From IMG/VR virus record IMGVR_UViG_2534681674_000012: 8,296 nucleotides of DNA. One strand, given 5' to 3'. Below, piece by piece: positions 5,041-5,348 of this stretch. The DNA comes from a virus. Lineage: Duplodnaviria > Heunggongvirae > Uroviricota > Caudoviricetes. The notes beneath the pieces were generated by a model. The model was not told where the DNA came from. It saw only the letters and a program-made list of their open reading frames with translations, and did not search any database. The translations under genes were made by a program, and so were the position numbers. Every line of letters starts with the position of its first letter. Positions within the stretch are counted from its first letter, which is position 1.

Positions 5041-5068
5041 TTGACAATAATGATAATGTTTATATAGA
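5041..5068 (+). promoter_or_regulatory. Candidate sigma70 promoter reading away from the holin (antisense to the holin leader)
   Basis: Perfect -35 TTGACA at 5041-5046 and TATAGA at 5063-5068 (16-nt spacer), with TG at 5057-5058. Pattern only. Confidence 0.3.
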
Positions 5069-5120
5069 AAGGTTCCCGATGTGTGTTACATATCATTTCT
5101 CCACGGGGAATATCCCCACG

Positions 5121-5167
5121 CCAGCGCAGACTCTTTTACCCGTTCTCTTCTGCGCTGGCTCTTTTTT
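5121..5167 (+). terminator. Stem-loop plus U-tract on the plus strand: candidate 3' end of a ~100-nt small RNA
   Basis: Perfect 10-bp inverted repeat CCAGCGCAGA (5121-5130) / TCTGCGCTGG (5149-5158) with an 18-nt loop, followed by CTCTTTTTT (T6 at 5162-5167). A second small hairpin GGGGA-ata-TCCCC sits at 5105-5117. The large loop is atypical for an intrinsic terminator. Confidence 0.4.
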
Positions 5168-5348
5168 ATTATGCTGCTGCATTTACCTCTGGCACCAGGC
5201 TTTCTATCTCAACACAATACGTGGTACTTCTTGTAACCAATATCATAACGATTAATCGACATAGAATTTCTCCCGTGTACAGGAACAGAGTTAAAAAGCC
5301 GGAACCGGAATCAAATCACAGGATGACCATCTGCCAGTGGCAGGTCAT

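Follow-up and report, generated by a model that had tools for sequence, protein, structure and literature searches.

We found that a flagged plus-strand stretch of the window (the whole 8,296 nt of DNA analysed, from IMG/VR virus record IMGVR_UViG_2534681674_000012) is a genuine small regulatory RNA gene. We are highly confident that this locus encodes EcOnc32, an Hfq-dependent sRNA of ~90-110 nt that most probably acts in trans by pairing its seed with the Shine-Dalgarno/AUG region of target mRNAs, mainly that of entC. Positions 5035-5175 are 100% identical over 141 nt to E. coli O157:H7 Sakai 901712..901572, in the prophage Sp3. There, EcOnc32 was reported at 901574-901662(-) as a predicted sRNA of the "orphan Hfq binding site" type, found in 5/5 Hfq-CRAC crosslinking datasets, running at ~112 nt on a Northern and predicted to end in a Rho-independent terminator (Tree et al. 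2014, Mol Cell; PMC4104026 Table S2). This Hfq-CRAC peak maps to window 5085-5173 on the plus strand, and the Northern probe as printed is antisense to 5079-5107, with one G fewer than the genome. Since the locus is base-for-base EcOnc32, identical in sequence, strand, position between PasD1/EcOnc13 and the holin, and terminator, the candidate is an already known, experimentally detected sRNA. The first-pass annotation was thus right to call a plus-strand sRNA of ~100 nt with its own promoter and terminator; the RNA it could not match to a named sRNA already had a name in the literature. What has been published on it is limited to its coordinate, Northern size and Hfq binding, and covers no homologue, target or function (PMC4104026).

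A second copy lies in prophage PP4 of EPEC E2348/69, which is 99.7% identical to window 4940-5560, and is mis-annotated as the CDS E2348C_1013. Its abundance depends on Hfq, with a log2 fold change of -2.91 (a ~7.5-fold drop; padj 1.4e-23) in the hfq deletion versus wild type (RNA-seq, PMC8550237). The features of the locus are collected in Table 1.

Table 1. Features of the EcOnc32 locus and the surrounding late region (window coordinates)
Feature	Position	Strand	Basis or remark
Antiterminator Q	7425..6805	-	Pfam Antiterm, 4e-58
252-aa ORF, family unassigned	late region, listed after Q, before DUF3927 gene	-	
DUF3927 gene	late region, listed between 252-aa ORF and holin	-	
PasD1 / EcOnc13, convergent partner sRNA, STnc100 relative	5349..5521	-	Rfam and PP4 identity
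Spurious annotated ORF (ECs_0817, E2348C_1013, WP_033816266.1)	5083..5481	+	runs through terminator
SASA (sialate) esterase relic, last ~24 codons	5170..5237	-	BLAST vs V4 locus L183
Candidate promoter A, CTGACT (5028)-18 nt-GATAAT (5052-5057)	5028..5057	+	promoter scan
Candidate promoter B, TTGACA (5041-5046)-16 nt-TATAGA (5063-5068)	5041..5068	+	read from sequence
Candidate Fur-box-like site AATAATGATAATGTTTATA	5046..5064	.	15/19 match to GATAATGATAATCATTATC, over both candidate -10 regions
EcOnc32 sRNA	5064..5167	+	3′ end firm; 5′ end between ~5064 and 5078
Stem-loop 1, GAUGUGU-GUU-ACAUAUC	5078..5094	+	folds and RNAalifold consensus
Seed CAUAUCAUUUCUCCAC	5089..5104	+	complementary to Shine-Dalgarno and start codon; sRNA part of CLASH chimeras
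Stem-loop 2, GGGGA-AUA-UCCCC	5105..5117 (arms 5105-5109 / 5113-5117)	+	folds and RNAalifold
Intrinsic terminator	5120..5167	+	11-bp stem, 18-nt loop, UC, U6 (5162-5167)
Class II (phage 21 S-type) holin, first lysis gene	4725..4940	-	Pfam PF04971 Phage_holin_2_1, 1.4e-32; also so annotated
Lysozyme RrrD, then Rz-type lysis protein	late region, beyond holin	-	

Fold, ends and promoters

Folding of the RNA from 5070 to 5172, one of the checks proposed at first pass, gives a minimum free energy of -35.6 kcal/mol against a shuffle mean of -18.6 (z = -5.8; 0/200 shuffles as good). Independent folds and RNAalifold recover the same three-hairpin layout in EcOnc32, every full-length variant and Esr41. 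Six bases of the seed sit in the 3′ arm of stem-loop 1. The GGGGA/TCCCC hairpin seen by eye is indeed present and, as stem-loop 2, aligns with hairpin two of the Esr41 model in Rfam. The terminator had been described as a 10-bp stem with a T6 tract; stem and U6 stand, and the stem is one pair longer, with GCCAGCGCAGA (5120-5130) pairing with UCUGCGCUGGC (5149-5159). A consensus terminator scan overlooked this hairpin because its loop limit is 8 nt. A CLASH read ending in GGCTCTTTTTT and the RIL-seq coordinate 1060613, equivalent to window 5168, place the 3′ ends at 5167-5168.

At the other end, two candidate promoters overlap, and the 5′ end of EcOnc32 therefore ranges from ~5064 to 5078. The predicted start of promoter A at ~5064 would yield an RNA of ~104 nt, and that of promoter B at ~5075-5078 one of ~90-93 nt; neither equals the ~112-nt Northern estimate. 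Promoter B is the one read at first pass. Its TTGACA is where it was said to be and is invariant across all variants and the Esr41 gene, which displays TTGACA-N17/18-TATATA upstream of the start of the Rfam Esr41 model. The accompanying -10 fared less well: TATAGA exists but lacks the conserved final T and is absent from the output of the promoter scan, which reports the overlapping promoter A instead. The -10 of promoter A is TATAAT in variant V4 and TATCAT in V2. This GATAAT/TATAAT/TATCAT conservation and the Northern size favour promoter A, ~13 nt further upstream, as the probable promoter in use. Given the Northern size, TTGACA, contrary to the first reading, is possibly not the operative -35.

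Variants and the relationship to Esr41

The 141-nt unit has matches in 603 of 5426 complete E. coli genomes (~11%), at ≥99% identity in 564, and its carriers include many O157 (O157:H7), O55 (O55:H7) and O111 pathogens. Prophage contigs of IMG/VR hold four further variants (V1-V4), which differ in the promoter spacer and the terminator loop but all keep the seed unchanged. Conservation and covariation of the stems had been named as a check, and the outcome is mixed: the structure is kept across the variants, but the covariation is thin, with one compensatory pair among 6 distinct sequences (a terminator stem pair that is C-G in V1 and U-A in V4) and several one-sided changes that keep pairing, such as the G.U pair of stem-loop 1 that becomes A-U in V2, V3 and V4. 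The covariation visible by eye in stem-loop 1 is missing from these counts because MAFFT misaligned the stem-loop 1 of Esr41.

An Rfam scan, likewise proposed beforehand, recovers a sub-threshold match to Esr41 (RF02676) at 5080-5169(+), which spans the model at full length (1-74) with 32.3 bits, far below the gathering score of 102 (E = 0.004 over the whole window; local search, 1.4e-4), and is the only plus-strand Rfam match here. Beyond TTGACA, EcOnc32 shares with Esr41 (also EcOnc14) the 5′ hairpin, a single-stranded UUUCUCCA core, a GGGG/CCC(C/U) hairpin, a GCC(A/G)GC...GCUGGC terminator and the U-tract; the Esr41 gene itself (L004) has the GGGG/CCCU hairpin and a GCCGGC...GCUGGC terminator. 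Variant V4 is intermediate, with Esr41-like bases in the second hairpin. Each of the two RNAs binds Hfq and has been captured with iron-acquisition mRNAs at their ribosome-binding sites. They differ in the terminator loop (18 nt in EcOnc32 versus 5-7 in Esr41), the flanks of the core and the seed, which is shifted, with EcOnc32 using CAUAUCAUUUCUCC and Esr41 using UCUCCAUGGGG. They also differ in genomic home: Esr41 adjoins iha in SpLE1 (O-island 43/48) of EHEC, whereas EcOnc32 lies in the late region of a lambdoid prophage. These comparisons identify EcOnc32 as a diverged paralogue rather than as Esr41 proper.

This divergence extends to predicted pairing. Esr41 pairs with chuA and cirA via UCUCCAUGGGG, which neighbours the shared core, at -20.9 and -21.2 kcal/mol, versus -18.8 and -17.6 for EcOnc32 (2-4 kcal/mol weaker). 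Conversely, the entC pairing is -22.7 kcal/mol for EcOnc32 and -14.6 for Esr41. Among the rows covered for EcOnc32, there is no chimera with the Esr41 targets chuA, cirA or bfr. The paralogues thus appear to share an anti-Shine-Dalgarno core and to have shifted specificities, both within iron acquisition.

Matches to the Esr41 covariance model have been reported as frequent near PasD (Zhu, Shabalina and Storz, bioRxiv 2026); the element that they saw is the EcOnc32 element. A genome-wide search with the pattern TTTCTCCAYGGGGN{3,5}TCCC returns chance matches in unrelated phyla, with Shigella flexneri, which carries true Esr41, as the sole relevant case among the matches listed; the same pattern is useful in the viral contigs of IMG/VR.

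PasA and PasC of EPEC E2348/69 (homologues EcOnc51/52) are positional counterparts, which occupy the strand and slot of EcOnc32, beside the holin gene and opposite in sense to the late operon, and share with it TTGACA and the GCCAGC/GCUGGC outer terminator stem. They differ in lacking the second hairpin, and PasA has its seed in the terminator stem. Comparison of PasA/PasC with the body of EcOnc32 recovers no match (blastn word size 7, E <= 1e-3), only the flanking esterase relic, and they have no Rfam Esr41 match.

Targets in trans and the prophage setting

RNase E-CLASH in EHEC joined EcOnc32 to entC at Sakai 706302-706362 (-20.5 kcal/mol) and also to the ECs1655 mRNA (Waters et al., PMC5286369, Table EV7). 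The gene ECs_0632 is entC, with its ATG at Sakai 706356. In both chimera types, the sRNA part starts (A)CAUAUCAUUUCUCCACGGGGAAU. The CLASH support is small, with scores of 4.4 and 3.2 in the top two rows and single reads in the other two. Hfq RIL-seq in EPEC adds 263 chimeras with the entC 5′UTR (odds ratio 14, p = 4e-165), in a set where the EcOnc32 copy, labelled E2348C_1013, is always the second partner (PMC8550237, Table S3). The captured fragment spans -42..+7 of entC. By count, the largest RIL-seq partner is the start region of rpoS, with 537 chimeras at an odds ratio of only 2.8, and further partners are the dnaK 5′UTR (28) and an island intergenic region (72) (PMC8550237). These chimeras, which also show EcOnc32 in association with RNase E and Hfq in vivo, support the action in trans suggested at first pass.

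We computed pairing at the very sites in trans-encoded mRNAs that were captured by CLASH and RIL-seq, using seed-sized pieces, as RNAduplex on full-length RNAs returns meaningless long-range structures. The seed pairs with entC UUUUGUGGAGGAUGAUAUGG at -22.7 kcal/mol (z = -5.3; 0/2000 shuffled targets as good), and the predicted duplex covers the Shine-Dalgarno and the AUG. At the start of ECs_1655, whose product is a KGG-repeat stress protein (Pfam PF10685), it finds a perfect 14-mer, GGAGAAAUGAUAUG, at -21.7 kcal/mol. A duplex search with the rpoS start region gave nothing convincing, only an 8-nt terminator-loop match in an implausible structure.

We accordingly propose that the seed would anneal in trans over the Shine-Dalgarno and AUG of its targets, the main one being entC, which heads the operon for enterobactin synthesis, and the second the prophage gene for the KGG-repeat stress protein. 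The U-tract of the terminator would bind Hfq. Once paired, the RNA would keep ribosomes off the target and bring in RNase E, and would thereby probably lower EntC production. The searchable literature yielded no study that tests EcOnc32 against entC with a reporter, a mutant or compensatory mutations.

The prophage setting would also allow a different, local role. In the window, the late genes of a lambda-like prophage run on the minus strand; EcOnc32, on the plus strand, occupies the gap upstream of the holin, opposed to the direction of the late operon, and its -35 lies about 100 nt upstream of the holin start on the opposite strand, where the first-pass annotation correctly put the unit. 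Known as the "moron" site, this gap separates the Q-dependent late promoter from the lysis genes (PMC4104026). Convergent sense/antisense dyads of Hfq-binding sRNAs occur at this site in at least eight Sakai prophages (Sp3 and seven others; PMC4104026; PMC7873438), an arrangement whose reason a later review calls unclear (PMC7873438).

The convergent partner here is PasD1, at 1060260-1060432(+) in E2348/69, i.e., window 5521..5349(-), whose EHEC homologue is named as EcOnc13 (Pearl Mizrahi et al. 2021, PMC8550237, Table S6). It corresponds to an Rfam STnc100 match at 5551..5346(-) of 37.5 bits versus a cut-off of 47, and ~180 nt separate its 3′ end from that of EcOnc32. The EcOnc13 Northern probe as printed is unmatched in the window, the longest exact stretch being 10 nt.

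EcOnc32 could pair with the Q-antiterminated late leader, or convergent transcription could interfere with it, so that holin production and lysis are delayed or damped. EcOnc32 is encoded 125-225 nt ahead of the holin ATG (4940, minus strand), on the opposite strand, and the leader is perfectly complementary to the RNA. Against this, the captured partners of EcOnc32 are all trans-encoded, its homologue Esr41 acts in trans from an island without lysis genes, and EcOnc32 does not overlap the ribosome-binding site of the holin. We consider such antisense control in cis unlikely as the main role; it is, however, compatible with action in trans, and the two are not exclusive.

Less likely still, and in our judgment rather improbable, is that EcOnc32 is an anti-sRNA or sponge that titrates a core sRNA instead of regulating mRNAs, as AgvB and AsxR do. 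All three bind Hfq, and EcOnc32 matches the other two in orientation and in its convergent-dyad position, which in lambdoid prophages is downstream of PR′ (PMC4104026); it is also very abundant on Hfq, with ~808,000 RIL-seq fragments under "other interactions of RNA2". AgvB and AsxR, however, are 51-60 nt long and sponge the core sRNAs GcvB and FnrS, whereas the partners of EcOnc32 are mRNA 5′ regions: its recorded significant partners include no sRNA, and its seed is a classic anti-Shine-Dalgarno sequence. AgvB and AsxR have a conserved ~42-nt 3′ region, and their Rfam models (RF02702 and RF02703) match neither the window, searched at E <= 1, nor the E2348/69 copy.

It is very improbable that the locus is a non-functional relic, a terminator and debris left by deletion of an esterase gene, an alternative whose general form, the remnant 3′ end of a deleted gene, the first-pass annotation had itself raised. 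A remnant does exist, confined to the flank at 5170-5237: its translation ends in YCVEIESLVPEVNAAA and two stops versus YGVEIESLMLEINAPAS and one stop in the intact esterase, and the EcOnc32 terminator abuts the former esterase stop codon. About 1.76 kb of the esterase body is absent from the window (BLAST vs V4 locus L183), and this body is present in the V4 loci and in the PasA and PasC loci of E2348/69. A degenerate EcOnc32 copy that no longer folds is found downstream of stx2i (L002). The sRNA itself, however, is intact in both esterase-containing (V4) and esterase-less loci with its seed unchanged, and two pathotypes express it abundantly and bound to Hfq.

That a true protein-coding gene begins in this stretch, either the 132-aa ORF ECs_0817 / E2348C_1013 or a 72-aa ORF at 5037-5255, is scarcely credible: genome annotation, both by pipelines and in the original records, gives a CDS and AAGG lies 7 nt ahead of an ATG at 5079, but the mapped RNA 3′ ends fall inside both ORFs, the 5083-5481 ORF has no Pfam family above threshold and is antisense to PasD1, and terminator-loop indels in V2 and V4 break its frame (30 aa are left in V2 locus L003), so that we reject the 132-aa ORF as an annotation artefact, as the first-pass annotation had judged both plus-strand ORFs to be.

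A Fur-box-like site and iron

The proposed action of EcOnc32 in trans on entC gains a possible regulatory context from its promoter region. By consensus matching, which is no demonstration of binding in itself, the site at 5046-5064 scores higher as a Fur box than any other in the window; dinucleotide shuffles reach its score in 3% of cases when the whole window is shuffled and in 0.1% when the shuffling is local. Divergent variants retain the match (15/19 in V2 and 14/19 in V4), and Esr41 does not (12/19). In repressed promoters, Fur boxes typically cover -10 elements, and the placement of this candidate would agree with control of EcOnc32 by Fur and iron. The published work detected EcOnc32 in the iron-poor media MEM-HEPES and DMEM. 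A candidate Fur box would give EcOnc32 a likeness to RyhB, the core Fur-repressed iron sRNA, which is also Hfq-dependent and iron-linked; its sequence is unrelated to that of EcOnc32.

We tentatively entertain a broader possibility, that EcOnc32 is an iron-responsive, Fur-repressed prophage sRNA that damps enterobactin synthesis via the entC ribosome-binding site and that forms, with Esr41, a family of mobile-element sRNAs rewiring how pathogenic E. coli acquires iron. On this possibility, its role would have been overlooked because the locus is annotated as a protein (ECs_0817 / E2348C_1013).

With EcOnc32 catalogued since 2014 and visible in two interactome datasets, little is gained here as discovery. 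The RNA is nevertheless uncharacterised and RefSeq still annotates a hypothetical protein, and the value of the present analysis is that of a pointer. Three points, the Esr41 paralogy, the agreement of two datasets on entC and the Fur-box-like promoter, appear to be unreported in the searchable literature and give the locus modest follow-up value. The Esr41 homology, the entC pairing observed independently in EHEC and in EPEC and the Fur-box-like promoter make a concrete and cheap hypothesis: siderophore production by the host may be tuned by a prophage.

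Abundance on Hfq and a possible second pairing site

The small RNA EcOnc32 has a copy of window 5080-5168 in EPEC E2348/69 that is labelled as a CDS, E2348C_1013, in Table S3 of the Hfq RIL-seq study (PMC8550237), where its rows carry an 'other interactions of RNA2' count of ~808,000 / ~18.2 million. Because this count exceeds that of SroC in the same table, it suggests that the E2348/69 copy is among the most abundant RNAs on Hfq in EPEC. The loop of the EcOnc32 terminator is mostly kept in the variant prophage copies V1 and V2, and within it CCGUUCUC is complementary to GAGAACGG, a stretch of the early rpoS coding region caught by RIL-seq. 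This complementarity could be a second pairing site of EcOnc32, or it could be chance.

Features of the window and of the PasA locus of E2348/69
Feature	Position	Strand	Remarks
EcOnc32 terminator loop, CUCUUUUACCCGUUCUCU	window 5131-5148	(+)	18 nt
PasD1 / EcOnc13 small RNA	window 5521..5349	(-)	convergent partner of EcOnc32
PasD1 / EcOnc13 terminator	window 5375..5357	(-)	3' end of RNA
Promoter-plus-terminator unit, TTGACA...GCCAGCGTCTTCTTTTTCAGGTCAGTCGCTGGCTTTTTTT	2767-2870 of L205 (E2348/69 740500-744500)	opposite late genes	
ORF, 252 aa	window 6564..5806	(-)	between Q and DUF3927
SASA sialate esterase (nanS-p type), C-terminal relic	window 5170-5237	(-)	junction near 5236
Terminator-like hairpin + U-run	window 5006..4978	(-), late-gene strand	directly upstream of holin ribosome-binding site

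Partner and neighbouring RNAs

PasD1 / EcOnc13 is a relative of STnc100, the Rfam match at window 5551..5346 (-) being sub-threshold (37.5 bits against a threshold of 47). As printed in the supplementary probe table of Tree et al. (PMC4104026), the EcOnc13 Northern probe, TTTTCTAACACATCTATTATCAGACCGGCAACAAC, has no match in the window, and the EcOnc32 probe is one G short of the genome. The L205 unit is a second such unit, which adjoins the small RNA PasA, abuts the esterase stop and occupies the same slot as EcOnc32 does in the window; no Rfam match was found for it. Further sub-threshold Rfam matches in the window are to IS009 at 304-475 (-), with 86 bits where the threshold is 117, and to the CssrB 3' hairpin at 215-277 (-).

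Flanking genes and the hairpin before the holin

No Pfam family was found for the 252-aa ORF, whose RefSeq version (WP_001302581.1) is shorter, at 247 aa; strain 2013C-3264 and the E2348/69 prophages PP2 and PP4 all carry this RefSeq protein in identical form. In the Sakai record the corresponding gene is annotated as a membrane protein. At the esterase relic, ~1.76 kb found in related prophages is deleted from the window. The hairpin upstream of the holin is kept in every variant locus, and the PasA and PasC loci display another, different hairpin at the equivalent position. It may insulate the lysis genes against transcription from the moron, the gap between the late promoter region and these genes, in lysogens.
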